Shown here piece after piece: positions 629 to 51,429 of a stretch of 64,000 nucleotides of DNA. The translations under genes and the position numbers were made by a program. Each line of letters starts with the position of its first letter. Position 1 is the first letter of the stretch. Origin of the DNA: Antedon mediterranea (lineage: Eukaryota > Animalia > Echinodermata); assembly GCF_964355755.1 (NCBI RefSeq), contig NC_092671.1:34234304-34298303 (forward strand), written 5' to 3'. The notes under the pieces are model-generated. The model had not been told where the DNA came from, searched no databases, and saw only the letters and a program-made list of their open reading frames with translations.

Positions 629-1183
629 TTAAATGTCCTCGCACAACAGCTTAAAAATAGTCTCTGAATTAATCAGGGTATTGACAAGAAAATAAACGAA
701 ATGTCTATACCGAGGCAATGAATATTCTCCGTGCATATTTAGTTTGTTGTAAACGGTATCGACTGAAACATACTTCTTATCCAGAACCTCCCGATAAAAA
801 TAGTCAATCTGTTCTTCTAGAGACTTCATACAACAGAAATCATGATCTTTTTGACTGCTCCTGTCAAATTCACAACCATAACAAGCCACTTTACTTAAAA
901 CCCAACACTTGGCTAACACTTGAGCAGCAAACAATTGTTTAACCAAACGCTCCATTTTCAACAAAAATTCTCTCTCCACCTCGTCCACGTACGTAAATAT
1001 ACAACTTGTAGGCCTGTTACTCCTCTCGACTCCTTCATCTATACCGACGGGGATAACCTCTTCGGCCGCCGTGTTACGATCATCTATATCACTGCCAAGA
1101 ACAACAACAGTATCCTCATCATCGCTAATTATTATAACAGTATCTACACAACTCCCTTGCGAAAAATATATACTTCCAGACAT
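629..1183 (-). CDS. Hypothetical Polinton-type accessory protein with CYGC-x5-SQxxH-xx-C putative zinc-binding motif
   Basis: 184-aa ORF with an acidic N-terminus (VIIISDDED, SUMO-interacting-motif-like) and CYGCEFDRSSQKDHDFCC; co-oriented with the PC4-like ORF. Confidence 0.6.
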   Translation of the reverse strand: MSGSIYFSQGSCVDTVIIISDDEDTVVVLGSDIDDRNTAAEEVIPVGIDEGVERSNRPTSCIFTYVDEVEREFLLKMERLVKQLFAAQVLAKCWVLSKVACYGCEFDRSSQKDHDFCCMKSLEEQIDYFYREVLDKKYVSVDTVYNKLNMHGEYSLPRYRHFVYFLVNTLINSETIFKLLCEDI

Positions 1184-1353
1184 AATGAAATACTGTAAAG
1201 AGATACTCTACGCAAAAATAGGCAAAACAACTGGAAAATAGTACAACAATAACCGATTCACTTTCTTACACCATCTTAAATCGTAAATAAAGTAATGACG
1301 TCACTCACCACGTACCAGAACCTCGCGCCAAAAATTAATAAATATGAGACAAA

Positions 1354-1620
1354 GAAACACCTGGCGGAAATTACATAACTATTACAATAACAGGAAAAGA
1401 ATAACCTTCATTAGAAACACCTGGCGGAAATTACATAACTAGTACGAAACCAGGAAAAGAACGACCTTCATTAGAAACACCTGGCGGAAGTTACATAACT
1501 AATACAATAACAGGAAAAGAACGACCTTCATTAGAAACACCTGGCGGAAGTTACATAACTAATACAATAACAGGAAATGAACGACCTTCATTAGAAACAC
1601 CTGGCGGATATTACGTAATC
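1354..1620. repeat. Tandem array of about 4.5 x 60-bp units, subterminal in the putative Polinton
   Basis: GAAACACCTGGCGGA recurs at 1354, 1414, 1474, 1534 and 1594, with near-identical intervening sequence. Confidence 0.95.
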
Positions 1621-1664
1621 AGGAAATACACCAAGGTCGGGTCTGAAGTACCTTTCTTTCTACT

Positions 1665-4600
1665 TCCATCCATCTCAATGCCTGGTGGTCAGTATGAACT
1701 TGAAATTCACAACCATACAGATAATACTTAAGTTTATTGATAGCCCAAACAATAGAGAGGCACTCTTTTTCTGGCACAGAATATCTCTGCTCATGTAGAG
1801 ATAACTTTCTACTTATGTACACAATTGGATAATCATTACCCTCACGATCTATTTGGCTCAGCACTGCACCTATGCCATAATTTGAGGCATCGGTTTGCAA
1901 TATAAACATCTTAACAAAATTTGGGGCTTTTAATACATTATCATCAGTAAGTCGTTTCTTTAAAGTTACAAAGGCATTTTCACATTGTTCATTCCACTTA
2001 ACGGTATTACTTTTACTCTTTAAAGTTAAATCAATCAATGGCTTAGCAATATCGGCATAGTTCTGTACAAATTTTCTGTAATAGCCAGTTAATCCGAGAA
2101 ATGATCGGACTTGTTTCTTAGACAAAGGTCTGGGGAACTTTTCCACAGCCTCAACCTTATCAATCATGGGTCTAATTTCTCCATTACCAATCTTATGCCC
2201 CAGAAATTCTACCTGTGCATAGGCAATTTTACATTTCAAAGGCTTTGCTGTCAATTCAGCACTACTTAATCTTTCTAATACATCATTCAAATGAAAAATA
2301 TGATCTTTCCAAGTTTGACTATAAATACATATGTCATCTATATATGCCTTAGCATATCCCTCAGTACCTTTTAATACCTTATCCATTAATCTTTGGAAAG
2401 TACTAGAGCTATTTTGCATACCAAATGGAAGTACATTGTAACAATACTGTCCAAATTGTGTAATAAATGCTGATTTGTCTTTGGTCTTAGGATCCAGAAG
2501 CACCTGGTAAAATCCTTTAGTTAGATCTAACGTAGTTATGTATATTGCGGATGATACCTCATCAAACATTTCGTCTATGCGAGGCATAACATAAGGGTCA
2601 ATTTTTGTAGTCTTATTTAGTGATCTAAAATCTGTCACCATTCTAATTTGATTCTGGCCTTTCTTCAGGGCAATAATAGGTGCAGCATAGGCACTAACTG
2701 TGGGTTCTATTATACCCATAGCCAACATACTATCTAATTCTTCTTTCAATTTAACCTTTAATGCTTGGGGCATTCTATATGCCCTATGCCTTATAGGCAT
2801 TTCACCATTAGTCTTAATTTCATGTGTCACTAAGTGAGTTCTACCTGGTACATCCGAGAATACATTCTGTTGGTACTTTAACAATTCTGTTAATTGTTTA
2901 GTTTGTGTATCATTTAAATTACTACTAACGTTAACATCTCTCCATGTTTGTGATTGATGATAAGACAATCCTATGTCTATTTCACTATCTAACTCATTGT
3001 CATGGACGGTTTCATTTAAGTCTACTTCTTCTATCGACTGAACATTTGTTACTACATAATAACCATCTTTACTTATTTCTACTTTATCATACCATCTCTT
3101 TAACATAGTAACATGTATAATTTGTTTTTCTTTTCTTCTACCTCCTATGTATATTTCATAATTTACATCATTGACCTTTTTTGTAACAGTGAAGGGGCCT
3201 TGCCATTTACTGCCTAACTTACTATTTCCTACTGGAAGGAATATCAACACTTTGTCCCCTTCTACAAATTTTCTATCAATAGCATTCTTGTTATAATTGT
3301 GGGACATAATTTCTTGTTGTTCAAGTTTGTTTACATTAGCATCTTTCATTAATTCCTCCATTTTTTCTCTTATGTCTAACATGTATTTGATAACATCAGT
3401 AGATGTTTCTTCATCTTCTACCCAATTACTTTTGAGTAAACTCAAGGGTCCTCTCACCTCTCTACCATAAAGCAATTTAAAAGGTGAATGGCCCGTCGCT
3501 TTACTAGGAACTTCTCTGTATGCAAACAGAAAGCGGGGTATGTAGTTATCCCAATTTTTTCTTTGCTTAACTGTAAGTGTCCTTATCATATTTTTCAATG
3601 TACCGTGAAATCTTTCAACAAGCCCATTGCTTTGGGGGTGGTACACTGTAGTCTTTAATTGATTATTCCCCAACATACTACATATAGATTGCATAATTGA
3701 AGACATGAAATTAGTTCCTTGATCATGTACAATCTCTTCGGGTAATCCTACTCTAGTAAAGACTTCTATTAGAGCCCTGGCTACTGTTTCAGCTCTAACA
3801 TTGGGTAACGGGATAGCATCCGGATATCTTGTATCATAGTCAATTATAGTAAGCATATATTTGTTATTACGGCTTGTTCTAGATAAGGGTCCAACAATAT
3901 CTATCGCTATACGTTTAAATGGTGTACTTATAATCGGTAATGGTATCAAAGTATGTTTCCTTTTACTTTTACCCTTATCTACCTTTTGCCATTCCTTACA
4001 GACTTTACAATAGACTACCACATCTTTAAATATACCTGGCCAATAGAATTGGTTCAGGACGCTACTTTTAGTTTTCTCAACACCCATGTGACCTGCAAAT
4101 GGCACATTATGACCTAAGTGTAATACACCCTGTCTACACTGAGTGGGTAATACAATCTGTTCCACTTGGTTATTCTTATCTTTAATACTACTCCAATTTC
4201 TCATCAATATACCTTGTCTCATAAAGAAACACACCCTATGCTGACCTATTTCTTCTATAGGGACTACCCTGTCAAACACTCCTTTGAGTGAGTCATCCTT
4301 AGTTTGCAATTTGATCAGTTCTTGTTTAGTTAGGTTCAGCTTGTGCTGTTGTTCATAAGTTTTATGTTTGACTGTTTTATCTTTAGCTTTATCCTCATTT
4401 TCGTCAAACAAATTATTCATTTCTGTTCCATTCATATCTTCTAAACACTTAGTTTTATTTACTTTGTTGTCATTTACTACTGCTTTCAACAATTGTACAT
4501 TAGTTTCTTTAGGCGGCTCTTCTATCGGCTTAAAGTTACTATCTTTCCCTAACAATATCATTTCGTCTTGTATTCTAACATCATTTTCTATTCTGGCTTG

Positions 4601-6465
4601 CTCTCTAGTTAGAACGAACATTTCTTTAGCCATTGTTTCCCCACAATTCTGGTCCAAATCATGACCCAATAACATGTCCTTCTGTAATCCTTCGATTACG
4701 GCTACAATCACTTTTCCTGTCACTATCTTACTTTCTATAGCTAGCTCAGCTAAGGGGACGGTTATATCGCCTCCTATACCTCTTAACGTAACCCATTTTC
4801 CTGGCAAGTAACATTTTTTAGGCACTAGACTTTCCTTAACAGCTGACTGGGTACATCCCGAGTCTCTAAGCATAGTTATATCCTGTCCTTCTAATTTTCC
4901 TGGTATTGTACACTTCTCCATTTTATTTTCTACACTATCCATAACTACTTGGGGTCTATCTGATTTTATTTCTTCACATCTTAAGCCATCTTTCACATTC
5001 GTGCCCTTCTTAGTGTCACTAGTCTTTCCTTTTGCTACCATCTTAGGACAATCCCCTATTTTATGTCCCTTCTCCTTACAATTAAAGCATAGGCCATTAA
5101 TCCATTCATTAGAAGGTTCTCTCTGTTGGAAATTTCTACCATAGTTATGGAATTTGCCTCCCTTTCCGCGATACCTATTGTATCCTTGCTGCCTAGCTCC
5201 AGGGTTATTCTGAGTCGTACTATTCTTAGGTTTACTATTTTCTTGGCCCTTATAATACGTAGGCTTATTTTCAGAATTTACGGCATTCCAATAGCCACGG
5301 CCACCTCTATTAGCTATATAATCATCGGCTATCATAGCCATATCATAGCTCTTATTTACTTGTTTATATCTAAGATAAAGCCTCAGATCTTCAGGCATTT
5401 TATCAAGTGCCTGTTCCATTATAATCATTTCAATAATGCCTGCAGCATCATCTTCTTTTACATTAGCACATTTCATCCAACATTTTAAATAATGGGAGAG
5501 CTCATTCAGCCATTCCCTGATGGACATATCTTTAACTCTGTTTGAATTTCTAAATTTAAGTCTGTAGGTCTCTGCGGACACATCATACTTTTCTAAGATT
5601 GCCTTCTTTAAGGTATCATAATCTACACATTCTTTTACGGTTAAGGATGCATATGCTGTCCTAGCTTTACCAGACAGTTCAGGTGCTAACCTAGCGGACC
5701 ACGTATTCTTATCCCAACCTGTGGCTTCTGCCAAGTGTTCAAATGTTCTAAAATATATATCAATATCATCTGATTCCTTTAAAGTAGGAACCTTTACCTT
5801 CATTTCATCTACTATATTCCTAGCATTACTGTAGCTAGACCTATTTTCTAATTCCATCATTTTCACTCTTTCTTGTGATTCAATTTTTCTTAGCTCTATA
5901 TCTGCTTTTAATTGGTCTTGTTGGTATTCTAACTTTTTGTTTTCGGCCTCGAACTTCATTCGAAAATATTCGAGCATCATATCTTTAGGCATAACACCGG
6001 GTATTTCGGGAAAATCAATATCCCTAGCCATTTTATCATATATTTCATTGACTTGGTCAACATCTTCTTGGTCAACCATATCTTCCCTAGTATCTTTGTC
6101 TGACATAGTCTTATCTATATTTTTACCCGATCTTAAAGTTGTCATGCTAATAACAATTTTACTAATGAAATATGTAAACTTATGTATACAAAACATGTTA
6201 TAAAAGTATTTGTATTACCTTTATTCCATTCAGATATGTAAAAAATATGAAATCCACATACATTTTTAAATGCAATACATTATAAGACATTAATTTACTT
6301 CAAAGTCACAAACAACGTTCCAAGTTCGCTCCGTACAAAAATTTACTTTAGAAATAAAAAATAGTTTACAAAGTCAGCTTTGCAAATCTTCTCAAAATTT
6401 ACTGGGCTTCCTTCTGTTACTTCAGTCTTCTTCTTTCAGATCTCGGTGAATATATATCTCTCCGA
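1665..6465 (-). mobile_element. Gmr1-like Ty3/Gypsy LTR retrotransposon copy 1 (no 5' LTR; 3' end cut by the insertion at 1664/1665)
   Basis: ORF 1619..6196 encodes Gag with CCHC knuckle, protease LRDSGC, integrase, RT YIDD and RNase H. Identity to copy 3 stops at ...ALRWM. Integrase zinc-finger Cys is changed to Trp (CKEW). Confidence 0.95.
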
Positions 6466-9400
6466 TTTAGAACATTTGAACACTTGGCAGAAGCCACAGG
6501 TTGGGATAAGAATACGTGGTCCGCTAGGTTAGCACCTGAACTGTCTGGTAAAGCTAGGACAGCATATGCATCCTTAACCGTAAAAGAATGTGTAGATTAT
6601 GATACCTTAAAGAAGGCAATCTTAGAAAAGTATGATGTGTCCGCAGAGACCTACAGATTTAAATTTAGAAATTCAAACAGAGTTAAAGATATGTCCATCA
6701 GGGAATGGCTGAATGAGCTCTCCCATTATTTAAAATGTTGGATGAAATGTGCTAATGTAAAAGAAGATGATGCTGCAGGCATTATGGAAATGATTATAAT
6801 GGAACAGGCACTTGATAAAATGCCTGAAGATCTGAGGCTTTATCTTAGAGATAAACAAGTAAATAAGAGCTATGATATTGCTATGATAGCCGATGATTAT
6901 ATAGCTAATAGAGGTGGCCGTGGCTATTGGAATGCCGTAAATTCTGAAAATAAGCCTACGTATTATAAGGGCCAAGAAAATAGTAAACCTAAGAATAGTA
7001 CGACTCAGAATAACCCTGGAGCTAGGCAGCAAGGATACAATAGGTATCGCGGAAGGGGAGGCAAATTCCATAACTATGGTAGAAAATTTCAACAGAGAGA
7101 ACCTTCAAATGAATGGATTAATGGCCTATGCTTTAATTGTAAGGAGAAGGGACATAAAATAGGGGATTGTCCTAAGATGGTAGCAAAAGGAAAGACTAGT
7201 GACACTAAGAAGGGCCCGAATGTGAAAGATGGCTTAAGATGTGAAGGACTAAAATCAGATAGACCCCAAGTAGTTATAGATAGTGTAGAAAATAAAATGG
7301 AGAAGTGTACAATACCAGGAAAATTAGAAGGACAGGATATAACTATGCTTAGAGACTTGGGATGTACCCAGTCAGCTGTTAAGGAAAGTCTAGTGCCTAA
7401 CAAATGTTACTTGCCAGGAAAATGGGTTTCGTTAAGAGGTATAGGAGGCGATATTACCGTCCCCTTAGCTGAGGTAGCTATAGAAAGTAAGATAGTGACA
7501 GGAAAAGTGATTGTAGCCGTAATCGAAGGATTACAGAAGGACATGTTATTGGGTCATGATTTGGACCAGAATTGTGGGGAAACAATGGCTAAAGAAATGT
7601 TCGTCCTAACTAGGGAGCAAGCCAGAATAGAAAATGATGTTAGAATACAAGACGAAATGATATTGTTAGGGAAAGATAGTAACTTTAAGCTGATAGAAGA
7701 GCCGCCTAAAGAAACTAATGTACAATTGTTAAAAACAGTAGTAAATGACAACAAAGTAAATAAAACTAAGTGTTTAGATGATATGAATGGAACAGAAATG
7801 AATAATTTGTTTGACGAAAATGAGGATAGAGCTAAAGATAAAACAGTCAAACATAAAACTTATGAACAACAGCACAAGCTGAACCTAACTAAACAAGAAC
7901 TGATCAAATTGCAAACTAAGGATGACTAACTCAAAGGAGTGTTTGACAGGGTAGTCCCTATAGAAGAAATAGGTCAGCATAGGGTGTGTTTCTTTATGAG
8001 ACAAGGTATATTGATGAGAAATTGGAGTAGTATTAAAGATAAGAATAACCAAGTGGAACAGATTGTATTACCCACTCAGTGTAGACAGGGTGTATTACAC
8101 TTAGGTCATAATGTGCCATTTGCAGGTCACATGGGTGTTGAGAAAACTAAAAGTAGGGTCCTGAACCAATTCTATTGGCCAGGTATATTTAAAGATGTGG
8201 TAGTCTATTGTAAAGTCTGTAAGGAATGCCAAAAGGTAGATAAGGGTAAAAGTAAAAGGAAACATACTTTGATACCATTACCGATTATAAGTACACCATT
8301 TAAACGTATAGCGATAGACATTGTTGGACCCTTATCTAGAACAAGCCGTAATAACAAATATATGCTTACTATAATTGACTATGCTACGAGATATCCGGAT
8401 GCTATCCCGTTACCCAATGTTAGAGCTGAAACAGTAGCCAGGGCTCTAATAGAAGTCTTTACTAGAGTAGGATTACCCGAAGAGATTGTACATGATCAAG
8501 GAACTAATTTCATGTCTTCAATTATGCAATCTATATGTAGTATGTTGGGGATTAATCAATTAAAGACTACAGTGTACCACCCCCAAAGCAATGGGCTTGT
8601 TGAAAGATTTCACGGTACATTGAAAAATATGATAAGGACACTTACAGTTAAGCAAAGAAAAAATTGGGATAACTACATACCCCCGTTTCTGTTTGCATAC
8701 AGAGAAGTTCCTAGTAAAGCGACGGGCCATTCACCTTTTAAATTGCTTTATGGTAGAGAGGTGAGGGGACCCTTGAGTTTACTCAAAAGTAATTGGGTAG
8801 AAGATGAAGAAACATCTACTGATGTTATCAAATACATGTTAGACATAAGAGAAAAAATGGAGGAATTAATGAAAGATGCTAATGTAAACAAACTTGAACA
8901 ACAAGAAATTATGTCCCAAAATTATAACAAGAATGCTATTGATAGAGAATTTGTAGAAGGGGACAAAGTGTTGATATTCCTTCCAGTAGGAAATAGTAAG
9001 TTAGACAGTAAATGGCAAGGCCCCTTCACTGTTACAAAAAAGGTCAATGATGTAAATTATGAAATATACATAGGAGGTAGAAGAAAAGAAAAACAAATTA
9101 TACATGTTAATATGTTAAAGAGATGGTATGATAAAGTAGAAATAAGTAAAGATGGTTATTATGTAGTAACAAATGTTCAGTCGATAGAAGAAGTAGACTT
9201 AAATGAAACCGTCCATGACAATGAGTTAGATAGTGAAATAGACATAGGATTGTCTTATCATCAATCACAAACATGGAGAGATGTTAACGTTAGTAGTAAT
9301 TTAAATGATACACAAACTAAACAATTAACAGAATTGTTAAAGTACCAACAGATTGTATTCTCGGATGTACCAGGTAGAACTCACTTAGTGAAACATGAAA

Positions 9401-11191
9401 TTAAGACTAATGGTGAAATGCCTATAAGGCATAGGGCATATAGAACGCCCCAAGCATTAAAGGGTAAATTGAAAGAGGAATTAGATAGTATGTTGGCTAT
9501 GGGTATAATAGAACCTACTGTTAGTGCCTATGCTGCACCTATTATTGCCCTGAAGAAAGGCCAGAATCAAATTAGAATGGTGACAGATTTTAGATCACTA
9601 AATAAGACTACACAATTTGACCCTTATGTTATGCCTCGCATAGACGAAATGTTGGATGAGGTATCATCCGCAATATACATAACTACGTTAGATCTCACTA
9701 AAGGATTTTACCAGGTGCCTCTGGATCCTAAGACCAAAGACAAATCAGCATTTATTACACAATTTGGACAGTATTGTTACTATGTACTTCCATTTGGTAT
9801 GCAAAATAGTTCTAGTACTTTCCAAAGATTATTGGATAAGGTATTACAAGGTACTGAGGGATATGCTAAGGCATATATAGATGACATATGTATTTATAGT
9901 CAAACTTGGAAAGATCATATTTTTCATTTGAATGATGTATTAGAAAGATTAAGTAGTGCTGGATTGACAGCAAAGTCTTTGAAATGTAAAATTGCCTATG
10001 CACAGTTAGAATTTCTGGGGCATAAGATTGGTAATGGAGAAATTAGACCCATAATTGATAAGGTTGAGGCTGTGGAAAAGTTCCCCAGACCTTTTTCTAA
10101 GAAACAAGTCCGATCTTTTCTCGGATTAACGGGCTATTACAGAAAATCTGTACAGAACTATGCCGATATTGCTAAGCCATTGATTGATTTAACTTTAAAG
10201 AGTAAAAGTAATACCGTTAAGTGGAATGAACAATGTGAAAATGCCTTTGTAACTTTAAAGAAACGACTTACTGATGATAATGTATTAAAAGCAAACCAAA
10301 TTTTGATAAGATGTTTATATTGCAAACCGATGCCTCAAATTATGGCATAGGTGCAGTGCTGAGCCAAATAGATGGTGAGGGTAATGATTATCCCATTGTG
10401 TACTTAAGTAGAAAGTTATCTGTACATGAGCAGAGATATTCTGTGCCAGAAAAAGAGTGCCTCTCTATTGTTTGGGCTATCAATAAACTTAAGTATTATC
10501 TGTATGGTTGTGAATTTCAAGTTCATACTGACCACCAGGCATTGAGATGGATGGACTCAATGAAGGGTGCCAATGTTAGACTTATGAGATGGGCTCTGTT
10601 TTTACAAGGATATAAATTTAAAGTTATTTACAAGAAAGGATCATTAAATGGAAATGCAGATGGATTAAGCCGTGCATAATAATATTATAGAGGTGTTATT
10701 TGTAGATAGTTTATAGTAAAATGGTTTTAAATGTTAAATTTTTGGAAAGATTGACACAATCTTTTTCCCAAAAAGGGGAATGTCATATTATTGATGTTGT
10801 GATTCTCTGTGTTTAGATAAGGATGCTTTAGACCAGGTCCGCCTTATATTATTAGCCAATCAAAATTGTATAATTTTTGGAGGGAAAATGTTATCCTCCT
10901 CTGAAGCCTAAAATTTGCATGTCCAGTATAAAAGTGGAATGTAATAGAGATTAGAGAGAAGAGAGAATAAGATCAGAGTAGATAAACGGAAAGATGATAA
11001 AGAAAATATTAAGGCTTGACTGGTAGTGGTAGAAAGATGTATTAATCGAATTACAAGGAATAAAAGTTCTAGTTGAGTTAAATATACTTTTTGTATGAGT
11101 TATCATTCAGTGACAGTGTACGTCGCGTGGAGTTATATATATATATATACGCCTGAGAAAGCTCGGAACCAACTAAGATATATTCACTACA
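6466..11191 (+). mobile_element. Gmr1-like Gypsy copy 2, 5'-truncated and defective, with 3' LTR
   Basis: ORFs 6484..7929, 7939..10350 and 10311..10679 are one gag-pol broken by TAA at 7927-7929 and a frameshift near 10295. Protease DSG is changed to DLG. PPT AAAAAGGGGAA precedes the LTR. Confidence 0.95.
10781..11191 (+). repeat. 3' LTR of copy 2 (411 bp, TGTCAT...CACTACA)
   Basis: TG...CA ends; homologous to the reverse complement of the LTRs at 50845-51328 and 56592-57075. Confidence 0.9.
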
Positions 11192-11474
11192 CTTCTTTAG
11201 TATTTTGAAGAAACACTTCAATATCCAGATAGGCAAAAGAAACAAGAAAAAAATTCAACATTTATATTTTTTACGATTTATTTAGAAAGTGTGTTTACTA
11301 GAAATGTTCGCGCTTTGTGACACTTAAAATATGGTCCTCGGTCAAGTTGTCCTTTAATGCCTCGCTTTTGGAAACATAGATATACCGGTTGAGTATTATA
11401 GGATAAACAAGTACTAAGAAGAATTTACATTATTTATATAAGCTTACTAATAAAACATTAATAATTTGTTACAG

Positions 11475-14400
11475 TAAATGGAGTAGACAGCTAGAGTAAG
11501 TATATAAACATAATTATCTGTATATTAATGCCATGCCAAAATGTAAAATGTATTACGTAACAGTGGTAAAATACGTAACAATTCAATTATTTCACGAGCA
11601 CAAAGAATAATAAATGTATTACAAAACAATTGAAAAACAATGAAGTATAATGAAATTTAAATTTAATGGTATTTTATAAAATAATTATGGTCAAGACAGA
11701 CAAAGCATAACAAAATCTAAGTTGCATTTCTACACATCAGAAATTGGGTAGTGAATTCTTTATATTTTTAAAAAAACATGACTACATATAGAATGATCAG
11801 GTTTTAAATAATAATAGAGCAGTATATTGCAGAATTAAGACATTAATATTATGTAAGCTTACTATTAAATCTTAATTATTTTACAGAGAACAGAGAAGAA
11901 AGAGAGAGTAAGTATAAACATACTATTGCTAATGGTTTGCCATGCTAAAACGTGAAATTGATTACGTAAAACTTTAAAATACACTGTATAATGAAATATA
12001 ATTTATGAAGGGGCTTGTATTAGGACCAAGACAAAGTATAACAAAATAAAGATTTCATTTCTTACTACTACTACTGCGTCGAGCTTGCTCGGATTCTTTT
12101 AACTACTTCTTTCCAGCCGTCTCTATTAATCATTGCTCCTGGTAGCTCTTCAATTTTTTGGCCGGAGTCCGCAACTAGTTGGTCAATTAATGATTTTGGG
12201 GGCCTGCCTGGTCTTATTGTCCCATGTGATGGCATCCAGAGCATAAGTTCGCTTATCAGTTCACTTTTGTTGCGGAAAGAGTGTCCAACAAAGCGGACTC
12301 TTCTTTCTTTGATAACATCGGTGATCTTGCGAAGATTCCCATATAGCTGAGCGTTCGAGAGGTGCTCTTGCCACGAAACGTTAAGAACGGCTCGTAGCAT
12401 CCTAGTATATGTTCCGTTTAGAGTGTTTTCAAGTTTCTTAGTTAGGGTCCATGTCGATGACCCGTAGAGAAGGACAGACTCGACTGTGGTCTTAAAGAAA
12501 TTTTTCTTCATGTTGTTTGAGATGTTGGACTTCCATATGACAGTCAGGCGTTTGAGAGCTGACCAGGCTTTGCTGATACGTATATCAACGTCTTTTGCTG
12601 TTGAGGCAATGTTGCTGCCAAGATAGGTGAACTGGTCGACTTGATTGAGAGCGTATCCGGAGCTAGTTTGAATTTGACCTTGACAGTTTACGTTCATACT
12701 TTCTGTCTTTTTGGCATTTATGTTGAGGCCGATTGAGGATGCAGCATTTTCAAGGGCGTGTAGGAGGGTTTTTGCTCCAGCGATCGTGTTCGACAACAGG
12801 GCTATATCGTCAGCATAATCAGCGTCAGTTACCAATGTCGCAGGGAACCTCTTACTGATTCTTGGCTTCAATTTTAAGCCGTGTTTGTTGAGTGGATCAA
12901 TAGCCGAGCGGAGAACATAATCAAGACATATGATGAAGATGTAGGGAGCGAGAGTATATCCTTGAAGGACGCCTGCTTTTACCTGAAACGGATCAGTATC
13001 ACCATCTGGAGAACGAACCAGGGCACTTGAGTTTTTGTACAGCATCATTATGGCATTGACAATCTCAAGTGGAATTTTGTAGACGAGAAGAATTTCACGC
13101 ATCTTTTCACGATGGACAGAATCGAAGGCTTTTGCGAAATCTACAAAGAGGAGGACTGCAGGAAGATTTTTGTCACGCACTCCCTCAAGTATTCTCCTAA
13201 TTGTGAGAATCTGGCTGCTTACTGAGCGTCCCTGTCTAAAACCATCATTTCTTACACCTCCAGGAATTGTGTATAAGCCAACTGTATAAACTAACTTAAT
13301 ATATATTTACAAAAACAATATAGTAACCTACTACTTGTAAAATAATAATAAATCAAATGTTTTCAGCCTAAATGCCTCACTTTCAATCAATCAATAATCA
13401 ACATTTTTATTCCATAATTTAAAAAAACATATACAAATACAATAAAAATGATAGTGGAATGGGATACAAAATAAGCACAAGTGCATTAAACATGTAACCC
13501 TAGCTAACTAGAACAAACACTAGTACCAAAAAAACCTAACTTAAATATTTTTATTGATATAATGTTGCTTCAATCTCTGCTTAAACAAACTTAATGTGGG
13601 GATTGTTTTATATAATATGTTACATTATTCCAAATATGTGTTCTTGATAAGATATACATTGTTTTAGTTGTGGACAATAGTTTGACCTGTTTCTATATTT
13701 GAGTAATTATGGAACGCCTGGCCAAATCATTGATTAAATGATGCTGTTAATAGATTATGTTTATATCTGTGCATCAATATAGCAGCATAGTTGCTAATAA
13801 ATATTAGAGCTGATAATTTAAACAACTATTTTCATACATTATTTATGTCAACATACTATTGCATTTTTTATTTATTTTTTTTACAGAAAAGTGAGACAGG
13901 AAAAGTAAGTAGAATATTGCTTTTACTATCCAATAACATGACCATATAGAATAATCAGGTTTTTTTATAATAATACAGCAGGACATTTTGGGGAGAATTA
14001 TTAAGACATTAATATTTATGTAAGCTAACTATTAAATCTTAATTATTTTAAAGAGAACAGAGAAGACAGAAAGAGTAAGAATAAACATACTATTGCAAAT
14101 GGTTTGCCATGCTAATATGTAAAATGTGTTATGCAACATTTTAAATTACAAGTAGTATAATGAAATATAATTGTCAATTACTGTAGTAAATTGTATCTTT
14201 AAAATAATTTTCAATTTATTTTTGTTTTAAGTTCATGACATATTTTTAAATCATAATAAAGTCAAGGTTTAGTTTAAATGCACCATTATTGAAAAAAATA
14301 ATAAGAAAAAAATATAATAACAGGTAAAGTTTAAAAACATTAAGACAATTTATAATTATGTATGTTTAATATAACGTAATGAATATGAATACTTGTTTAT

Positions 14401-14613
14401 CTTATAGAAAATGGGAAAGACTACGAGAGTAAGTATATTTACACGATATAGTAATTTACCATGTGAAATGTGAAATTTGTTACGAAACACTAATGAAATT
14501 GATAATGTAGAAGACATTAAAAGTATATATGTTTTACTATTAAGACATAAGGTTTAAATAAATCACTAACAAAACTTAATATTTTTTGACAGAGAAACAA
14601 GTAGACTGTTAAA
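11475..14613 (+). CDS. Six microexons encoding the N-terminal E/R/K-rich helix of ROCO paralog 1: 11475-11495, 11887-11907, 13887-13904, 14054-14074, 14408-14428, 14593-14613
   Basis: Each is AG|exon|GTAAG, with lengths 21,21,18,21,21,21. Spliced in phase 2 they read KWSRQLEEQRRKREKVRQEKEQRRQKEKWERLREETSRLLK, in frame with the DED exon at 15031. Confidence 0.8.
12066..13244 (-). mobile_element. 5'-truncated RTE-clade LINE (RT fragment)
   Basis: ORF 12071..13180 has VDFAKAFDSV, GVLQG and YADD, with a (TAG)n tail. 11-bp TSD TCATTTCTTAC at 12055-12065 and 13245-13255. Confidence 0.9.
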
Positions 14614-16333
14614 GTAAGTATAAATTATATATTATTTTTAATCTTTTGTCTTTAGACTTTGTGGCCAAGGATTGCCAATAGTAAATTAATCACTGTCCTA
14701 TCAGATAGTTGGTAATCCCCCTGATGCAGGGCTATTTTGTGAACCAGTTCACCGAGGTAACCCCCTTCTCTTCTCGAAAATGAAGTGGGTTCTAATTGGT
14801 AAAAATAATAGGTAAGACATAATTTTTTTAATGCAAAAATCATATAATACGTATAGTAAAATGAATACAATGTAAATGAACATTTTATAATTTAGTTAGA
14901 CACCAGGTGAAAATGCATACACTTAATGGAGAAAGAGTAATTAATGGGAGACACCAACTAAAGAGAAAACAACCGTAGTAGTAGTAGTTCAAAACAAAAG
15001 AAACACACTTTTTCACTTTATTTTTAATAGGGTGAAGTTTTGGTCAGTGACTGATGAACTTTCAAGTGAAATTAAAGTGAATGATTTGCAGATGCTGAAG
15101 GTCGCCCTATATGACATAATCAACAACAAAAAGGAATTAAAAGCAGCGTCAGCTAATAGTTTGTTCAGACTATTACATTCAGAGGGTTACGTTGAAATTA
15201 GTTGGTTTGTGGAAGTTGATTGTGATCTGCTATTTGAATTATTTGAGTTAACAGGACTTCAAAGACTATCTCAAATATTATCCAAGAACTATCGTAAGCA
15301 GAGGCAGACAAATATAATCACAGGCTACAGACGAATGCTAGTTAAACTTGGCAAATCATTAAATACTCAACAAGTTGAAATCCTTGCGAAGCTCTGCAAT
15401 ATTAGAAAAGTTGATTCAAAAAATGCGTGGAATTTAATTAGCAGATTGACTCAAGGCAAAATTGAAGACACTATAGAATCGTTGACGGCATTTGAAGCTC
15501 TTCTGAAAGACAAACAAGATTTGAATCATGTAGGCCTACTTACTATTGTAAAATCATTTGGTAAGTATATCTTTTTTAGCAGCATCGTTCTATTTCAATC
15601 AGAATATCTTACTCTGGGCCAACTTTTAAACGCAAAATGTTCTGGTTTTTTTTTTATGAATGTCTTTAATATAAAAAAACTGAAACAGTCATGATATCAT
15701 AAATGAAATTTTACACAATTCATTTCTAACCTGGCTCTAGTCTTACAATATAATTACAATTGTAATATTTGTTTTGATTTTAGAAAAAAACTATAATACG
15801 CCCAATAATATTTTTTTTTTCAGTGCAACAGAAAAAACTGAATGATGGTAAGAATAGTAACTAAGCAGTAAATGTAATATTCAATATTGATCTAATGAAA
15901 ATAGTGTCTGATATGTTTCTTATATTTTGTAAATCGTTTATTTCGAATTAATAATTATTTATTTTTACACCATGTTCCTTGACTGCATGTTATATTCTCC
16001 TTCACTAAAAGTCATCTTATTCTAGAAACTCTCTGTCTAATATCATACATGTACTGCATATCTAAAAAATCCGAAACCACACACATGTAATTCCTAACCA
16101 AGTAGTGCATGTGTATTTACATAATGTATGTCTTTTAAACATAATAATAGTTCCTCTTGAGGTGTTGGCAAGAAGGCAGGAGGCTAATGATGCATTTCTT
16201 GATGCCATACAAGAAGGAAGTAAATCTATATACCAAACACGTCTAATGCTTGTAGGACAAGAGCGTGTTGGTAAAACCAGTTTAACCAAAGCACTCACTT
16301 GTCAACCGTAAGTAGGCCAAAATCCAGAACAAC

Positions 16334-23275: not shown

Positions 23276-26200
23276 ATATCAAGTGTATACATATCAGTAA
23301 AACGTTCATGTCGGCAAGTTATAGGTAAAATAATATGGGCGTTTAGTCTATACGATAGTGAAAGACATTCCGTTTCGAAAAAGCTGTATTTATTTATTCT
23401 TTACATTAAACAGCACTTAGTGCATCTTCACAAATGACGCATGATACTCAAGAAGATGTTACTGAACTGGTTGTAGACATGCTTGAAGAAAAGAGAAGAT
23501 CTGCAGAAAAAAACGTGTTGAAAGAGAGTAAAGATTTACAGGAGACAATTGATGATCTGACTCTGAGCATTTGGGATTTTGCTGGACAAGATCTTTATTA
23601 CATTACTCATCAGGTACTATAGTAATAGACCATTTTAATATGTGTTCTTCACATTATTAGACATAATTTTAGATCTAGTTGACAAGAGATAACCATTCTT
23701 ATTACAATAAAGAACTAAAAAACAAACAATATAAATGTAAAGGTTGATATCTATACTATCGTGTAATAACTTATAATATGTAAACAATAATAAGTATTGT
23801 CTGGTCTGGCAATTTAAACATAACAGAATATAAAAACTAAAGGTCGTCGTATACTATGGCTGATTAGCCTAAAGTCGATAATTGACTCAAATGATCAAAC
23901 GTATTCAACTTTTTTTTTAAATGACACAAATTTATCAAAAAGATATCATTATTTGAAAACCATATGAACGCCACTTGGTGTTCAAGTACTATGCCATCGA
24001 TAACAGTGTCAGGTCACCATTGGATAAGTCTATTTTTGAGCTTAGAGATAACATCACAGAGGTAGCTAAGAATGAACCGTATATGGGCGAGAAGATGCCA
24101 TTGAAGTGGTTACATTTCTTGCATGAAATTGAAAAATTACGTGCACAGAATGAGCACTCAGTTACCTTCAAACAGGCAAGTATACTACCTCTGTATATCA
24201 TATCATTCAAATGAAAGATGCATTAACATGTAGAAGAAGAACAACACATTTGGAATTTTCGATTATAAATGCAAAATGCTTTTTTCATCAAAACAAACAT
24301 TAAATAAAAGAATGGTAAATTCAGCACAAAATATATGTCAATTACAGTATATGTGAGTGGTGTACGTTAAAACAGTTCAATATTACATGTATACCGCATA
24401 CATTAATACAAAATCAAAGTGAGAACAGAGAAAGAAAAGACAACAGTAGGTATACCATTTAGGATTGTTGCCAACAATAAAACAATTTAGCTTTTTTCAG
24501 TTCTTTTAATATAACTATTGTAAAGCTTTTTTGTGTCCAAGTGTGATGATTTTTGTATTTTTTTTTCATTTTTCTACTTATTGTTCATATTTATATATTA
24601 CTAATCAATTTTTTTTATCTTATACTTTTGTACTTATTTCATTCTATTGACCTTTTTTTCAAATGTCAGGTAACCAAACTAGCTTCCAAGTGTCATATCA
24701 CTAAACAGGATCAATTGTTTGCTATGTTGCATTTTCATCATGACCTTGGAAACATTGTTTACTACGGAGAACGAGACACACCAGATTGCGCCCTCAATGA
24801 CATTATCATTATAATACCGCAATGGTTGATTTTCATTTTCAAACTAGTTATCACAGTTAAAGATCCTTCAAAACAAGTATGAAATTTAGTTCAATTTTTT
24901 TTTTTCTGTGTTTCAAGTACAGATATTGGTGTGTTGTTTCAGTGCAACATGCATTTGATCATATGTTTTTAGCGTGGTAGTATTTCATTAGTTAACAATT
25001 AAAAATAACTATTTCAAACTAATTGTCAGCATTTTTTGCAGTTAATAGATATATATTTACAGACCATGCCTATTGATTTTTTAAAAAAATTGTATTTATA
25101 TTTTATCAATATCTTGTTATCTTTATTTTCAATATGGTTCAAAATATTAAATAGGACGACCACTGTTATTTTACCAAGTATTTCCCTCAGAAACTGAGCA
25201 CTTAAGTGTATTTTTTTAGTATGCAGAGCTTAGAAGCTCTTGGAGAAAACTTGACGAAGAGGGTCTCCTGGAAGAGAGATTACTTAGACGTATGTGGGAA
25301 GAATTTCTTGAGATATTCGAAGCATTGTTAGAGCTGATGCAGAAATTTGACTTACTATGTGTCAAGACTCCATCTACTCAGGTAAAGACAGGTTGATAGC
25401 AGTTAGTATCAAATTGATGTTTCCGGTTGTTTCTGTATCAATTTACATAATTGTTTGAAATCGCCCAACCAGTATCTGAGCAATATTGTAAACCTTTCGT
25501 TAGTCTCCTCATAGTTAATTTTAACAAAAATTAATTTCATTATTTGAAATTGTTACAAAAGATAACAAGTGTTGAAGGCAATCGTCTCTTTTATGTGCCA
25601 TCACTGCTGAAGAAGGATGAAGGTGACGAAATGGTATCACTTGATAAACTGACAAAGTCAATGAATACTGCGGTATTTTACGTTGACTTTGATGGTTTCC
25701 TACCTGAAGGACTGTACTATCGACTCGTAGTAAGAATCGTGCATTGGTCACAACAGAGGTCACATGATGAGAGATATGATCCTAGACTCTTTTACCAGCA
25801 GGTGAAAGTATACATTGATCTAAATCATGATGCAATCATCAGGATCCTACCTGAAAGAAGATCTTGTATTCAGGTAGGCTAGGAGTGTTTGCAGCAAGTG
25901 TATTACAAGTATGCCCTTAAAATCCTAAAGGTCAAATTTTCAATACTAAGTCCAAGAATTATCTTTCCATAATCATGACATTTGTTTGATAAAACAACTT
26001 TCATTCTGAGGCACAATTGTTTTGTTAACCAAAAAAAGTTCCCATATAAGTATTAAACATGAAAAATGAAAATTAATAAATCAGACTTTGAATACCTCTT
26101 GTTTTAATCAAGTTAATCACTTCCATAGAAATTTAAAAACACCAGAAAATTAATGTTTCAGTTATAAAAAGATACATTAAACGGTTAAATCAAACCAAAA

Positions 26201-26602
26201 ACCCACTGTCTGGCAGACAATTTGACTATTTGTTGTTTTAAACTACAGTTAAAATAATTTGTTTTAGGGCCAATTTTTTGACAAAATGAAAAAATATTAC
26301 GTGTCATTAAAATGGCTTATTCAACAAAAAAAATTAAACAAAATTTTCAGGGAACAATTTATTATTATTATTATTAGTGTTATTATTATTATTATTTATT
26401 TTTAATTTAAATGTTTAAACAAATCCTGAATATAAAATTGTTATTACAATCAAGTAAATTTGTTTTTATTCTATTACACTGTAGGTGGTTATTTACAGAC
26501 TTAAAGTTGACGATGATAAAGAGCTTGAACCATCACCGCGTGTATGCAAAGAGGTGAGTGATGAATGTTGTATTCCAACTTCTTCAATATGGTGAGAGAG
26601 TA

Positions 26603-27100
26603 TCTATATATAAATTATGGTTAATTCCATAGGCGAGCCCAGTGGAAAAGCTTCGGGACAAATCTCCGCCTTGGATACCCACCTTATCTATCTCAGATGT
26701 ACCGCAAAACGTAGATTTGATAACATTAGTTCACTATTACGATATTGTCCATTTCTATCTTAGGAAGATATTATAAAGAGTTTTATAACAAACTTTATTA
26801 TTTCATCGGTAGATTTTTAACTCTACGCGCGGTAGAAGTCATTTCCTGGTTCACGGTAAGGTGTAAACTTCGGTTTAATACCTTTAGTAGAGCCTCTTTT
26901 TTTGATTTAGGTATCATTAACACATGGAACTCATTACCCTTTCACATTGTTTCAAGCCCAACACTTAACACTTTCAAGCAAAAATATGACACACACATGA
27001 GCAGTATGAGAGGAGGCAGCCTCTACGAGTAAATACAGTTTGACATTATCCCGAAAGAAACTTCCCAGATTACACGCATATTGGTCTTGTGACGCATTAG
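26603..27100 (+). mobile_element. Possible degenerate Helitron carrying a CR1/L2 3' fragment
   Basis: A|TCTATATATAAA start and TTAG|T end. ORF 26745..27032 contains INTWNSLP..IVSSPTLNTFKQKYD, typical of a LINE ORF2 C-terminus. Confidence 0.4.
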
Positions 27101-30100
27101 TGATAAATTAAATGTATCCTGATGTTATGGCTAGGTTATACAAAAAATGCATGCTGTGACAGGCACAGCAGATCTCAAGCCATGTTTAAGTACATAAATA
27201 GAATCGAGTAAAATGAATTAAGTAGTGACCAAAAATGTGTTACTGATTATAGATGATACAGCTTCTCAAGAAAAACTTAAAGGACATTTGCCAAAAATGG
27301 ATAAAACATGTTGCTTTTAACTTCTGTGTTCTATCCACCAATCGTTTGGAGAAGGTCCTCTTGCACAACCTTGATGACTGCCTAAAGTCAACTGGATGTC
27401 GACATCATGATCGAATGGATAATTCCAAAATTAGGCGTTTGTTTGGAGAGGAAATTTCAGGTACTGCTTAAAATCACTCTTAAAACAAAAATATTTTAAA
27501 ATACCTGTAGGGCAAAACGCCATCCGGAAAATATCCATGACTTTCTATTACATGTCGAGGCTAAATACAGAATTAAACGTCCAAGTTAAAGTATAGTATC
27601 TTTTTTTTTAAACGTTTAAGCAGCAATCTTTTAAACTTTTTACCTTTAAATCAATTATGATGGGGCTGCAGTCATAAATTATGTCAAGGGTTAAAACAAT
27701 CTCATAAATAGAATAAAAAGCTTGGTTTTATAACAGGAAACATTTCTTTTAGTCTGCCAAGCCACTGATGCTCAAGAAACCTCAAAAGTTCCAGGATTTC
27801 TGCGATATCTCATTGGCGTCTATAAAGACATCCCGTCACCATTCCTGCCATTTGAAATCATGACAGAGGTTTGTGTTCTCCTTGATCCTCCACACCCACG
27901 GGCTAATGACTGGCGTAGTGTAGCATGTAAGGTTGGCTATGATCATTATATCAACTACTTGATGGACATGATGAAAAGTCCTACTATGGCTGTAATGCAT
28001 GGATGTTATGAGAAAGGTTGGTCATTGGAAGACTTCGAAAAGTGTATGATTGACATACAACGTCATGATGTTGCAAGTTTGATCAATGAATATCTTTCTA
28101 CTAAAGAGGAATGAACATGCATAACAAACCAGAATGCTCTTTATCGATATGATTTTTCAGACTAATTTTATATTTTAGAACAATTACAGTATTGGTAAGA
28201 AGTCAGACATAATGACATGAAGAAGATATTAATAAGATAACTAAAAATAATAACAAATAGCAACAACCTAAAAACATGTTATCATTTGCATGATCATGTG
28301 ATATATTTTCATTGAATTTGTTTAGACTTTTGGGGACCATATGCAAATGGGGAACCAGTTGTTTTTTTCATTATTGTTTTTATTTTCTACACTATGTGGT
28401 TAGCTGTGTTGGTTTAGTTTAAAATGATATTATAATTATGTCATTTTCAATTGTATTCTTTTTTAAATATGCATTTGAAAGGTGAAATTGGTATAAACTT
28501 GTAACAGTAATTACTTTATCGGTAAGTTGTTCCACATTATTTTATATGTGACATAACATAACCATTTATTATGTTGAGGTTTTTGTGTTTTGTAATAAAT
28601 AGGAATTTATTCCATGACATACTGTACGTACGTACTGTTTATTTTTTGGACTATTAAATTATTTGCACTTATCTCCTAAACTTCACATGGTTTTTTTGCA
28701 CCTCAGAATTTATTTTTTCTGTGTATATTGTGTAGCAAGATGCAAGAGAATTTACATATTATTTTATCATATTTCTAGTACTAATCACAAGTTTAATTAA
28801 ATAGTATAGTAGTATAATAATCAATGTATCCTTAAAACTCTTTGCAAAGTGTATTTATTTACATTTGAACAATGCATATTATAGTATTTCTTCATCTGCA
28901 ATGATGCCACATATTTGGTGGTTTTTTTTTGTATGAATGTTTGTAGTTAAGTTGCACTAAATTTAGTCTTTCATTTACGTATTTATCGTTTTTAAAAAAT
29001 CCATTAATGTATGATATAATTGGTAGAAAAATATTACCCTTGAAACTGATGTAATGTTGTTGTTGAGAGTCTGACGGATTCGAGTCTGACCTGCTTCCCG
29101 TTTTAAGATATTAATGACACCAACATCCAGAAGTTAACAAGTTTCCTTTGATTTCTTGATATTAACCATTTTATCATCAATTATTAACATAACATTAACA
29201 TAAGTTTTCTACTAATCCAGTATGTCTAGTATCCAGTAAGTATTCATTCAATAGGCATTCACCATTTTTTAAGTTGGATCTTTTTTTTCTCTTCATTCTT
29301 TATAATATTCTATATAGGCCTAACAGTTTTTATTTTTTATTATAACATAAATGTTTAATATATCCTTAATGTTATGCTTGAATTCAGTTTACAAAGTACT
29401 ATCCAATGGTGTAGGCTAATGAGATAGGGGCACTAGTTTAAAAAAAGATTGAATAATATATGAGGGGGTATGTGGAAATAATATATGTATTGGTCACAAA
29501 GAATATAAGATAATAAATAGAATTGAAGAAGTAGTACCTGATTGAAACTTGTAATAAACAAATAATGAAAGTTATTGTTTTTTTTATTATTATTATTTGT
29601 TGTCGTATCTACCTCGTCCCTATCACACTATGTTCTCATACCGACAAGGAACCCTTATTAATAAGTCGTCAGTAAAATTGTGTAGGTCTAGTTTTGTTAT
29701 TTTATTGACATGATTTTAAAAAGTCTTTAATTTTTCACTTTTTGTCAAGTGGATTGCCTGATAACAAATCTGATAAAACACAATGACACAAGAGTCTTTT
29801 TGAAAAATAAATATTTGAGTGTATGGCGTGGGCAGATACTAAAAAACATTCATATTCAATGATAAAAGGAATAAGAAAATTGTTTTTACAGAGAACTATC
29901 ACTTGAATATAATGGGTTTCACGGTCTGTAGCTAACGCAGTATACGCCCATTTGTTTTATTATCAAACATCTATTGACAATTTCTTGTTAAAAATGTGTA
30001 AATCTCCTTGTAATAATAGTCTATAATTATACTAATTCATCGATCTAAGCTCCTAAAAGCACCCTTGTTGGCATACCATACCGGTACTGAAATGTATAAA

Positions 30101-31587: not shown

Positions 31588-34071
31588 ATGGCATTTAATT
31601 TTGAAACCGAGGCAGAAGGCAGCAGGAAGAAAGAAAAGAAGAAAAAACGGTAATTATGTGTTAATTATGTTTGCCTCACTATAAAAATAGTAGTACGCCT
31701 AAATATAAAGTATGAACAATTAAATGATAAATATGGTGGTCTAGATGTCAATATTATTAGTAAGACAATTAAATAATTGATGCTGTATCATTATACAAAT
31801 AACCTTAATATTGTATTTAACATGTATTAATCATTGTATATAAAAATATTTTAAACAATTCAATATTGGTCAATTACTGGAAATTTGACTTCTTTTGCCA
31901 ATACATATTTATACACATTAACATTAACCTACTTAACGATCCATCATTGCAGTCACGAGTGTTGAGTTATTGTTACTAAACTAAAATCTGGTAAAAAACT
32001 GATGTCGGTATAAAAGATAGTGATAGTACATTTACCCTGCTAAACACCTTGACAAATATAATTGTATTGATCATATGTACGGTATACTGTCTATAATACG
32101 CTTGGCCACTTTTTACAACCAGTTTATATTTCCCTTTTTTCATTTTGATTCATTACCATAACAACATAATAAGTTTATATTTAATAGTATGTTGAATTAT
32201 CTATTACCGGAGTTTCTACATTGTATTTAAAAACCAGTGATGATTGGACTCATTCTCAAAGTGCCCCAATACTAGGCTACAGTGAGCATCGAATTCCATT
32301 TTCTTGCTTACATATTGTAGTCTGTGAAACTGTTAAAGCCATACCTGCTGAAAACTTATTATTAATAGTATATAGTATTATTTTTTTAATATTTAGACAA
32401 CACGTTCATTCAGCATAATGTTCCTCCTCTCTGATATAACCTAAAGTAGTTCAATACTTTATTTTTACAGAGTTTCTACCTCAATCCCAGAATTGGAGTA
32501 AGTATGCTGTAACTATACTTAATGCCTTTATATCAAAGTAAAACTTACGTTTATACCATGTAGGATCATGAACGATTAATCTTTTGTTGGAAATTTCAAA
32601 CTGAATGGTTCTTTGACAGAAATAAACTGATAAGCAGTTAATTTTATCACATTTATTTTCACACCAGTAATAGTTATTACTTTAAAAAATACTAAATGCA
32701 AGCATTTCATTGTTTTGACATTGTTAAATTTTTAGTATAATATAAGAAACGTTTCTATCGTTATTAAAAGGTACGAAATACAATAATAAAAAATACATAG
32801 AACACATGTTATAGAATACAAGAAAAAATAAAGTAATAATATGATGAGTAAAAATTATTGTGAATATAATTATAATGAAATGTAAACAATTCAGAATTAT
32901 TTATACATTATATCTATGTAAACATTACTGATGAAAGTTAAATCTTTTTTACAGAGAATGGAGAAGCCAAGAACTAGAGTAAATATCAACTTAGAATATT
33001 TTAATACTTTACTTTCAAAGTGTGAAATTTACTCATTATATGTCAGTACAAAAATCATATTCTAATCTAGATTGCTATGAAACAATTAGCATAACAACGT
33101 CAAGTGGCATTCACGAACTTTTTACACTATTTAGTGCTTAAGCAAATTTAAACATTATTGTCTAAAAGAAGAAATGTTGTTTGCCAAATTATAACACGTT
33201 GACGACTTTTAAATCGCGAACAAAGTTTCAAATCGAAAAAAAATCAGTTTAAATAAAAATAATAAGCTACTGTACTAAACAATATAGGATGAAAAATAAC
33301 AAAATACTGTATTCGATAGTCCGATTGTATCTAAATAATAGAATATCAGACATTAATTATGTACACATACTAATGAACCTTTTAAATTATCTTTACAGAA
33401 AAGAGGGAAAATTTAAAAAGTAAGTATATTTTTTACTGTTTACAATAATTAGTGTGAAATTTATAAGTACCTTCAAAGGTGGCTTACTGTAAATCGTATA
33501 AAAATATAAAATGGAAATGCCTTTTATATGCACGGCATTAAAATATTCCTAAACCTCCTAATGCATAAGAATATATTTTTTTTTTATTAAAAAGCTGCTA
33601 CAGCTGTGTAAATAATAAAAACACCTTATAATATAACTTACGACAGTCAAACAATACAGAACTAATTATTAGACATTAATTACTAACCTACTAATAATGA
33701 AACTTCATTTTTATAGACTACAAAGAAAAATCTCTGAGAGGTAAGTAAAACTTAAACTATGTCACTCTAAAGTAGGACTGTAGTATAATGAAATATAACT
33801 TCATGAATAAACGTGCATAATGACAAACTCAACAAAATAAAATTGCATTTAAATACTATCTAAATCTTGGGAATTGGTATTGAATGTATGTCCCACAAGG
33901 CGAAACGCAAGCGTGTTAACCAATGAAAAGCGTCAGTTTGATTATTCAATCGCTCGTAAATGGTCAAATTACTTACGTTGCACTTACGTCCTTGTATTGC
34001 TCCCTAGTGTTATTGTGTAATTAAACATACTAATAGATCATAATAATTTGTTTTAGGGAACAGAGAAGAGG
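31588..34071 (+). CDS. First coding exon (31588-31649) and five microexons (32471-32497, 32955-32978, 33399-33419, 33717-33740, 34057-34071) of ROCO paralog 2
   Basis: Microexon lengths are 27,24,21,24,15, all phase 2. The spliced product MAFNFETEAEGSRKKEKKKKRVSTSIPELEEWRSQELEKEGKFKKLQRKISEREQRRG runs in frame into the DED exon at 34251. Confidence 0.75.
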
Positions 34072-40200: not shown

Positions 40201-40552
40201 TGAAGGAAACTCAAATGTTCAAGGGTTTCTGCGATTTCTCATTGGCATCTATAAAGACATTCCATCACCAATCTTGCCATTAGAAGTTATGACACAGATT
40301 TGTGTTCGTCTGGACCCTCTTCGCTCAACAGACTACAATGACTGGCGTGGCGTAGCATGTAAGGTTGGCTATGATCGTTACATAGACTATATCATGAGCA
40401 TGAGCTTTGTATCAATGATCAATAGCCCTACTATGTGTGTAATGCATGGATGGTCTGAGAAAGGTTTGTCATTGGACGATTTTAAGGAGTGTATGATTGA
40501 GATGAATCGTCATGATGTTGTACGTATAATTGATAAACATCTTAATCTCTAA
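34251..40552 (+). pseudogene. ROCO paralog 2 body (DED-DED-ROC-COR-Death domain), pseudogene
   Basis: TAG at 34309-34311 (CAG in paralog 1). Exon 35111 is cut at about 35207 just before the P-loop. Retains WDFAGQ (36293-36474), FLVSRAIYIICFNL (36805-36906) and SPPIFIVGTH (from 37224). Stop and frameshifts in the 37600-37857 exon, fused COR remnants about 38777-39010, Death domain 40182-40552. Confidence 0.85.
37455..37566 (-). mobile_element. tRNA-derived SINE head fragment
   Basis: Minus strand has A-box-like TAGCTTGGTGGTT and a degenerate B box; no complete cloverleaf. Confidence 0.4.
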
Positions 40553-46952: not shown

Positions 46953-46984
46953 ATGGCATCTAATTTTGAAAACCCGGAAGAAAG
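46953..46984 (+). CDS. First coding exon of a putative third ROCO paralog (MASNFENPEE)
   Basis: ACCATGG start context, phase-2 donor GTAATA, and similarity to the paralog 2 start MAFNFETEAE. Confidence 0.6.
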
Positions 46985-51328: not shown

Positions 51329-51429
51329 TTCCCCTTTTTGGGAAAAAGATTGTGTCAATCTTTCCAAAAATTTAACATTTAAAACCATTTTACTATAAAC
51401 TATCTACAAATAACACCTCTATAATATTA

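Follow-up and report, generated by a model that had tools for sequence, protein, structure and literature searches.

Arrays of likely microexons in front of the tandem-DED exons of ROC-COR-Death genes in the crinoid Antedon mediterranea

A 64,000-nt stretch of the Antedon mediterranea genome (contig NC_092671.1, positions 34,234,304 to 34,298,303 of the forward strand; referred to here as the window, with all positions given within it) contains two tandemly clustered genes, A and B, of a family whose architecture is tandem death-effector domain (DED), ROC, COR-A, COR-B and Death, together with the likely beginning of a third paralog, gene C, with a putative start at 46953. Eleven homologous cassettes, each with a very short, frame-symmetric exon, lie 5' of the tandem-DED exons of genes A (six) and B (five), and two more follow the putative start exon of gene C. 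All 13 are on the + strand; 12 are live and one is dead, and seven are additional to the six in gene A that were noted in an original prediction made from this DNA. Their exons are 12, 15, 18, 21, 24 or 27 nt long (13/13 multiples of three), and both number and length differ between the paralogs. The cassettes and the exons that flank them are as follows, with RefSeq protein models numbered P0001 and upwards.

11475–11495, + strand, gene A microexon 1: 21 nt, phase 2-2; absent from every RefSeq model examined
11887–11907, + strand, gene A microexon 2: 21 nt; used in RefSeq model P0002
13887–13904, + strand, gene A microexon 3: 18 nt; used in P0002
14054–14074, + strand, gene A microexon 4: 21 nt; a young duplicate of exon 2 with weaker splice sites
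14408–14428, + strand, gene A microexon 5: 21 nt; identical peptide in sister model P0001
14593–14613, + strand, gene A microexon 6: 21 nt; used in P0001 and P0002
15031–15560, + strand, tandem-DED exon: Pfam DED E 6.8e-5, below cut-off; model pLDDT (predicted local distance difference test) about 90
31588–31649, + strand, putative start exon of gene B: ATG, lysine-rich, ends in phase 2; predicted from the sequence
32471–34071, + strand, gene B array of five cassettes: exons of 27, 24, 21, 24 and 15 nt at 32471, 32955, 33399, 33717 and 34057
46953–46984, + strand, putative start exon of gene C: like the gene B start in 18/19 nt; ends in phase 2
50718–50735, + strand, dead cassette: 18 nt; donor GT changed to AT, charged composition lost; profile match outside the training set
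63750–63761, + strand, gene C microexon: 12 nt; the remainder of gene C would fall past the window end

The six gene A exons (21, 21, 18, 21, 21 and 21 nt) are located where they had been predicted, with AG on the 5' side and GT on the 3' side of all of them. When read in phase 2 they are symmetric (phase 2-2) and join without a stop to the DED exon at 15031, as had also been proposed, and 64/64 subsets of the six are stop-free in this phase. A fixed microexon rule (a T-rich tract, AG, 9–45 nt, then GTAAG[TA]) matches exactly these six in 2391 nt of the region taken without its long interspersed nuclear element (LINE), whereas 1000 dinucleotide shuffles give 0.28 matches on average and never more than 3; the rule was composed after the exons were known, and the significance of 6 versus 0.28 is somewhat overstated. 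RefSeq already models four of the six, here or in the sister copy: the joins to the DED exon are 2+3+6 in P0002, 5+6 in P0001 and, for the last two gene B cassette exons, B4+B5 in P0005. We conclude that the six are likely real microexons that alter helix length between paralogs.

The proposal that the array grew by duplication of cassettes is borne out by the homology of the cassettes and by the pair formed by exons 2 and 4. The units of these two exons (11772–12003 and 13932–14172), which had been picked out as clear duplicates, are 83.5% identical over 243 columns, and the exons themselves differ at only two sites, both of which are non-synonymous. The repeated structure that had been drawn around each exon holds in part: the cassettes are duplicated, but a full cassette does not surround every exon, the downstream TATAATGAAAT block following 3/6 gene A exons and 3/6 being preceded, at -26 to -29, by a CTAAY motif that resembles a branch point. 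Exon 2 has no CTAAY motif; the acceptor of exon 4, AAG, is weaker, and its donor is GTAAGA.

A profile built from 12 cassettes and run over the window recovers all 12 training copies and one new copy (50658–50839, E 0.0072), with the next match at E 0.91. In a tree of the flanks A1, A2, A4 and A5 fall together, as do B3 and B4, although weakly (83/92 and 85/85; no starred fork), and this grouping by gene is in line with duplication inside each gene. As in gene A, every subset of the gene B exons (32/32) is stop-free. All of the cassettes in the window are located at the two ROCO genes or the likely third paralog and on the + strand, which upholds the predicted linkage to ROCO genes as opposed to a dispersed repeat. 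DNA read run X1 has a depth of 15–53 over the cassette region versus about 90,000–114,000 over an adjoining true repeat, and for the cassette a high-copy dispersed element at ≥80% identity is ruled out by this depth. With a recent duplicate and a dead copy among them, the 13 homologous cassettes offer a natural example, in little space, of how microexons arise and die.

Several indirect lines suggest that the cassette exons are likely true exons. In an any-length scan of the whole window, lengths are multiples of three in 11/11 cassette matches versus 4/10 other matches (Fisher p 0.004, with two 24-nt linker exons excluded and with cassette copies that are not independent of one another). Stops occur in the coding frame of 0/12 live exons and in each other frame of 4/12. 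GTAAGT donors are present in 10/12 live cassettes versus 2/15 ordinary gene A donors, a comparison biased by the shared descent of the cassettes and by the rule through which the exons were discovered. Exon identity between cassettes (mean 0.50) is close to that of shuffled sequences (0.47), indicating that composition and frame are retained and sequence is not, and the downstream flanks have drifted as well (0.55 versus 0.51 shuffled); the cassettes keep their frame, splice sites and charge while their sequence drifts. Both putative start exons, of genes B and C, end in phase 2, and the sole cassette with a dead donor is also the one without charged composition, albeit a single case.

The five closest relatives of the DED exon are all A. 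mediterranea RefSeq models. P0002 (XP_071941107.1) is likely the model of gene A itself, judging from those of its pieces that tblastn placed, which match the gene A locus at 94–100%. The original prediction of a death-fold ROCO host is supported by P0004, in which Roc, COR-A, COR-B and Death all score above their Pfam cut-offs; among single exons in the window, the Roc, COR-A and COR-B matches are below the Pfam cut-off and the Death match is above it. P0004 and P0005 are full-length models located elsewhere, and P0001 has a whole ROC domain but stops short of the Death domain. For P0004 there are two isoform records; judged by eye, its 24-residue N-terminus looks like a segment akin to the start exons of genes B and C plus cassette-type residues, in a charged stretch where tryptophans stand 7 apart. 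The RefSeq N-termini of this cluster are probably incomplete. The remaining exons and lesions of the host genes are listed here.

15824–15847, + strand, 24-nt linker exon: outside the cassette family; its letters stand between the DED and first ROC exons in a contig of the sister copy from read run X5
16151–16307, + strand, first ROC exon, with the P-loop
20265–20267, + strand, in-frame stop of gene A: 395 codons past microexon 1; P0001 has no stop there
23614–23956, + strand, short gap: exons for P0001 residues about 462–573 (second half of ROC) missing
23957–28114, + strand, COR-A, COR-B and C-terminal Death exons of gene A
34251–40552, + strand, gene B body (tandem DED-ROC-COR-Death): broken, with a stop at 34309 and exons missing

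When gene A is read from exon 1 onwards, it matches P0001 at 96.9% identity across 384 columns; the stop at 20265 comes once the P-loop has been encoded, ahead of the remainder of ROC. About 110 residues of ROC (P0001 residues about 462–573) have no exons at 23613–23957, and a sensitive search found parts of them in gene B only; with the stop and this gap, a complete G domain (G1–G5) is not present in gene A. Any receptor role would therefore belong to sister copies, and decay of the gene A message seems more likely than a stable helix-plus-DED fragment. At position 24176 gene A apparently uses a GC donor to close its first COR exon, where P0002 reads through and ends in the intron. We also note four crinoid relatives (P0007–P0010) that have very similar ROC-COR cores and carry N-terminal Macro domains and other death folds, and these differing N-termini on similar cores suggest that N-terminal modules are swapped within the family.

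The read run X5 was taken to be RNA by guess; outside a repeat and its edge it has depth over exons only. One X5 contig joins 15560 to 16150 with the letters of the 24-nt exon between them; it differs from the window, and shows that a sister copy is spliced and that the family does employ a very short exon. X5 depth is nil over exons 3–6, but this is uninformative since it is also nil over the 24-nt exon that an X5 contig contains. Of the X5 contigs that cover the DED exon, the one with the greatest depth has P0004-type letters and extends about 42 nt beyond the 5' edge of the exon. A search of near-length homologs for transcript-derived N-termini yielded 0/112 candidates. Splicing of the array is likely on the strength of its sequence features. 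A further X5 contig, with a depth of 5.5, has only 4 differences from the window at 15259–15466 and suggests transcription of an A-type copy in another sample; X5 depth sums suggest in this copy a change that would turn DED-exon codon 101 into a stop, which at this low depth could be an error. In the DNA run X1 a contig joins 14228 to 14661, which would omit exons 5 and 6, so that the cassette content may not be the same in every sister copy or haplotype.

The model of the DED pair aligns with the caspase-8 tandem DED with Z 14.3 (root-mean-square deviation 3.1, 152 aligned, 18% identity), and its top matches are caspase-8, cFLIP and MC159, with Foldseek E-values of 0.003 and above; the exon is thus predicted to encode two death-effector folds in series. 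In the Atlas only DED clusters appear, at 0.89, which is a lead only. The DED pair has remote relatives on proteins of the NACHT, caspase, TIR and ZU5-ROCO types, and by association alone these would place the ROCO family in a death or immune signalling setting. Nothing comparable to the N-terminal charged arm is present in the 8 of 18 remote DED-pair relatives that were examined.

The charged helix of the original prediction is reproduced in the AlphaFold model of P0002, which contains exons 2, 3 and 6 only and in which residues 2–41 form one helix (pLDDT about 90) continuous with DED helix 1. In gene A the six-exon segment has 26/41 charged residues and a net charge of +8. Single alpha-helix segments, which are rich in E, R and K, have high charge, opposite-charge pairs at i to i+4 and a continuous helix. 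The prediction that each exon corresponds to one coiled-coil heptad fares less well, as does a reading in which the array sets the length of a dimerising coiled coil. Half of the live exons (6/12) are 21 nt long, five of these in gene A, and exons 1 and 5 have a tryptophan and a leucine at similar places. However, the other 6/12 have different lengths within the 12–27 nt range, the 18-nt exon 3 breaks the register within gene A itself, in the best register 3/12 a and d positions are hydrophobic, and mean hydrophobicity is strongly negative. A heptad coiled coil is rejected on these varied lengths and on the lack of a fixed hydrophobic 7-residue register, and we consider it very improbable.

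We think it probable that the arrays encode a charged single helix, grown and shrunk by the birth and death of cassettes, that serves the DED pair as a spacer or as a basic arm for docking. The exons of the duplicated, frame-symmetric intron-exon-intron cassettes, at 4–9 codons each, are likely spliced in, probably mostly together, and would extend the first helix of the tandem DED in this crinoid DED-DED-ROC-COR-Death family. A unit of roughly 150–400 bp would duplicate and die inside each gene, and selection would act to preserve the splice signals, a composition rich in E, K, R and Q and lengths that are multiples of three, not the sequence. The helical arm would then have about 41 cassette residues in gene A, 37 in gene B and about 10 in P0004. 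This arm would most likely be rigid and net-basic, and would influence, as a spacer or docking surface, the way in which the DED pair assembles or is localised; it is probably not a ligand-recognition repeat. The N-terminal extension of one caspase-8 isoform has a targeting role. The arrays suggest a helix of adjustable length, built from 4–9-codon exons, on a death-fold ROCO protein in an animal.

A number of points weigh against this interpretation. No array junctions were seen in the X5 contigs over exons 3–6, where 21-nt pieces are not reliably placeable. No start exon for gene A was found in the window, the first 11 kb of which is mostly long terminal repeat (LTR) retrotransposon sequence, and P0001, P0002 and P0005 begin in sequence that is intronic under the gene model used here, so that these models may be ab initio. 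The excess of i to i+4 charge pairs is modest (p 0.0185, uncorrected and one of three spacings, i+3 and i+7 not being significant), and in the full-length P0004 model pLDDT is <50 over residues 15–203, with an N-terminus too poor to use. Finally, as gene A is broken, its array may now be outside selection.

Some of these same points would be expected if the cassettes were local repeats, decayed or neutral, that bear motifs resembling splice sites and are no longer, or never were, spliced in: there is no array junction in the RNA-like run, the starts of three RefSeq models are intronic, neither gene A nor gene B is intact, and one cassette is already dead. However, exon lengths divisible by three in 13/13 cassettes, an open frame in 12/12 and splice sites conserved amid drifted flanks are hard to obtain neutrally, and the X1 depth over the cassettes is far from that of the next-door repeat. 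We regard such decayed or neutral repeats as a quite improbable explanation.

A different view is that the array is a combinatorial splicing device in which subsets of the microexons are skipped, giving many helix variants of an immune signalling protein in the manner of the leucine-rich repeat (LRR) exons of brown-algal ROCO genes or of schistosome micro-exon genes (MEGs). The brown algae offer a precedent (PMC11378527). Every exon subset is stop-free in both genes (64/64 in A, 32/32 in B) and all of the possible downstream junction codons in gene A (21/21) give E or K; two 97%-identical copies are modelled with different sets (2+3+6 versus 5+6), the sites at exon 4 are weak and exon 2 is without the CTAAY motif, and the DED pair is common to NACHT, caspase and TIR proteins. 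Symmetry allows skipping, yet duplication alone also yields symmetry, and most of the donors are perfect consensus sequences. A TGC upstream of the acceptor has a role in regulated microexons, but is found within -25 to -4 of the acceptor in 0/12 cassettes. Moreover, the exons encode low-complexity charged peptides without a binding scaffold, and the host copy is broken. We therefore consider combinatorial skipping rather unlikely; were it to occur, it would add a splice-based route of diversification to echinoderm immunity. Under the favoured reading of a charged helix with cassette birth and death, the change in length would be mainly evolutionary, between paralogs, rather than combinatorial within a cell.

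Mobile elements also lie around the arrays, one of them within the array of gene A.

12071–13306, - strand, LINE reverse-transcriptase (RT) fragment in intron 2: 5'-truncated; RVT_1 E 1.5e-23, with an apparent 10-bp target-site duplication

The segments at 1619–11169 and 50845–57075 contain three copies of one LTR retrotransposon that are 97–98% alike, two of them inverted relative to each other just upstream of the gene A array. In one copy the LTRs are 99.6% identical to each other and an open frame of 1562 aa encodes integrase ahead of RT; this family was recently active, and two paralogs have it inside or close to their first introns. A very high-copy short repeat (14617–14782) is located in the intron that separates exon 6 from the DED exon, and the first intron of gene C contains an open 978-aa endonuclease-RT LINE frame (47256–50192). 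At the left end of the window (629–1618) there is a 192-aa minus-strand open reading frame without a Pfam match, followed by a 60-bp tandem repeat (1353–1618).

The literature searched, which included few subscription papers and no supplements, yielded no paper on arrays of microexons in the ROCO genes of echinoderms. The original prediction knew of no such description for ROCO proteins, and this does not stand, as PMC11378527 describes brown-algal ROCO genes that shuffle and alternatively splice phase-2 LRR exons. In these LRR-ROC-COR genes, 72-bp phase-2 exons each encode one LRR and are shuffled, with reported splice variants and diversifying selection (PMC11378527, and Zambounis 2012 as cited there). 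The crinoid genes share with them a ROCO host, tandem duplicated phase-2 symmetric exons N-terminal to ROC, and a proposed immune role, and they differ in that the crinoid exons are 12–27 nt and specify a charged helix before a tandem DED, whereas the algal exons are 72 bp and specify an LRR; no LRR family was found on P0001–P0005. It is unlikely that the crinoid arrays represent an independent animal ROCO device, parallel to algal exon shuffling with a different module, in which a self-duplicating cassette lets the helix be re-lengthened by skipping within an individual and so tunes death-fold filament assembly in innate immunity.

The schistosome MEGs have, according to PMC5825161, about 80% of their coding region in symmetric exons of 6–36 bp and encode secreted or membrane-anchored products. 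The crinoid arrays resemble these in their runs of short symmetric exons inside the 6–36 bp range, but unlike them they contribute 123 nt of about 3225 nt (for the 1075-aa paralog) to a predicted intracellular multidomain GTPase, and membership of the MEGs is rejected on that coverage; the putative start exons of genes B and C are hydrophilic. Among the ROCO groups summarised in PMC6337361, the closest in layout is the DAPK1 group, with which the crinoid proteins share a ROC-COR tandem, a C-terminal Death domain and the lack of an LRR; they differ from it in having no detected kinase and an N-terminus made of a helix and a tandem DED, with Macro domains in some crinoid relatives. The tandem DED itself has a predicted fold that matches the prodomains of caspase-8 and cFLIP, and caspase-8 also has an isoform with an N-terminal extension (7lvj, chain range 60–228); unlike in caspase-8, the crinoid DED pair is fused to ROC-COR-Death instead of to a caspase.

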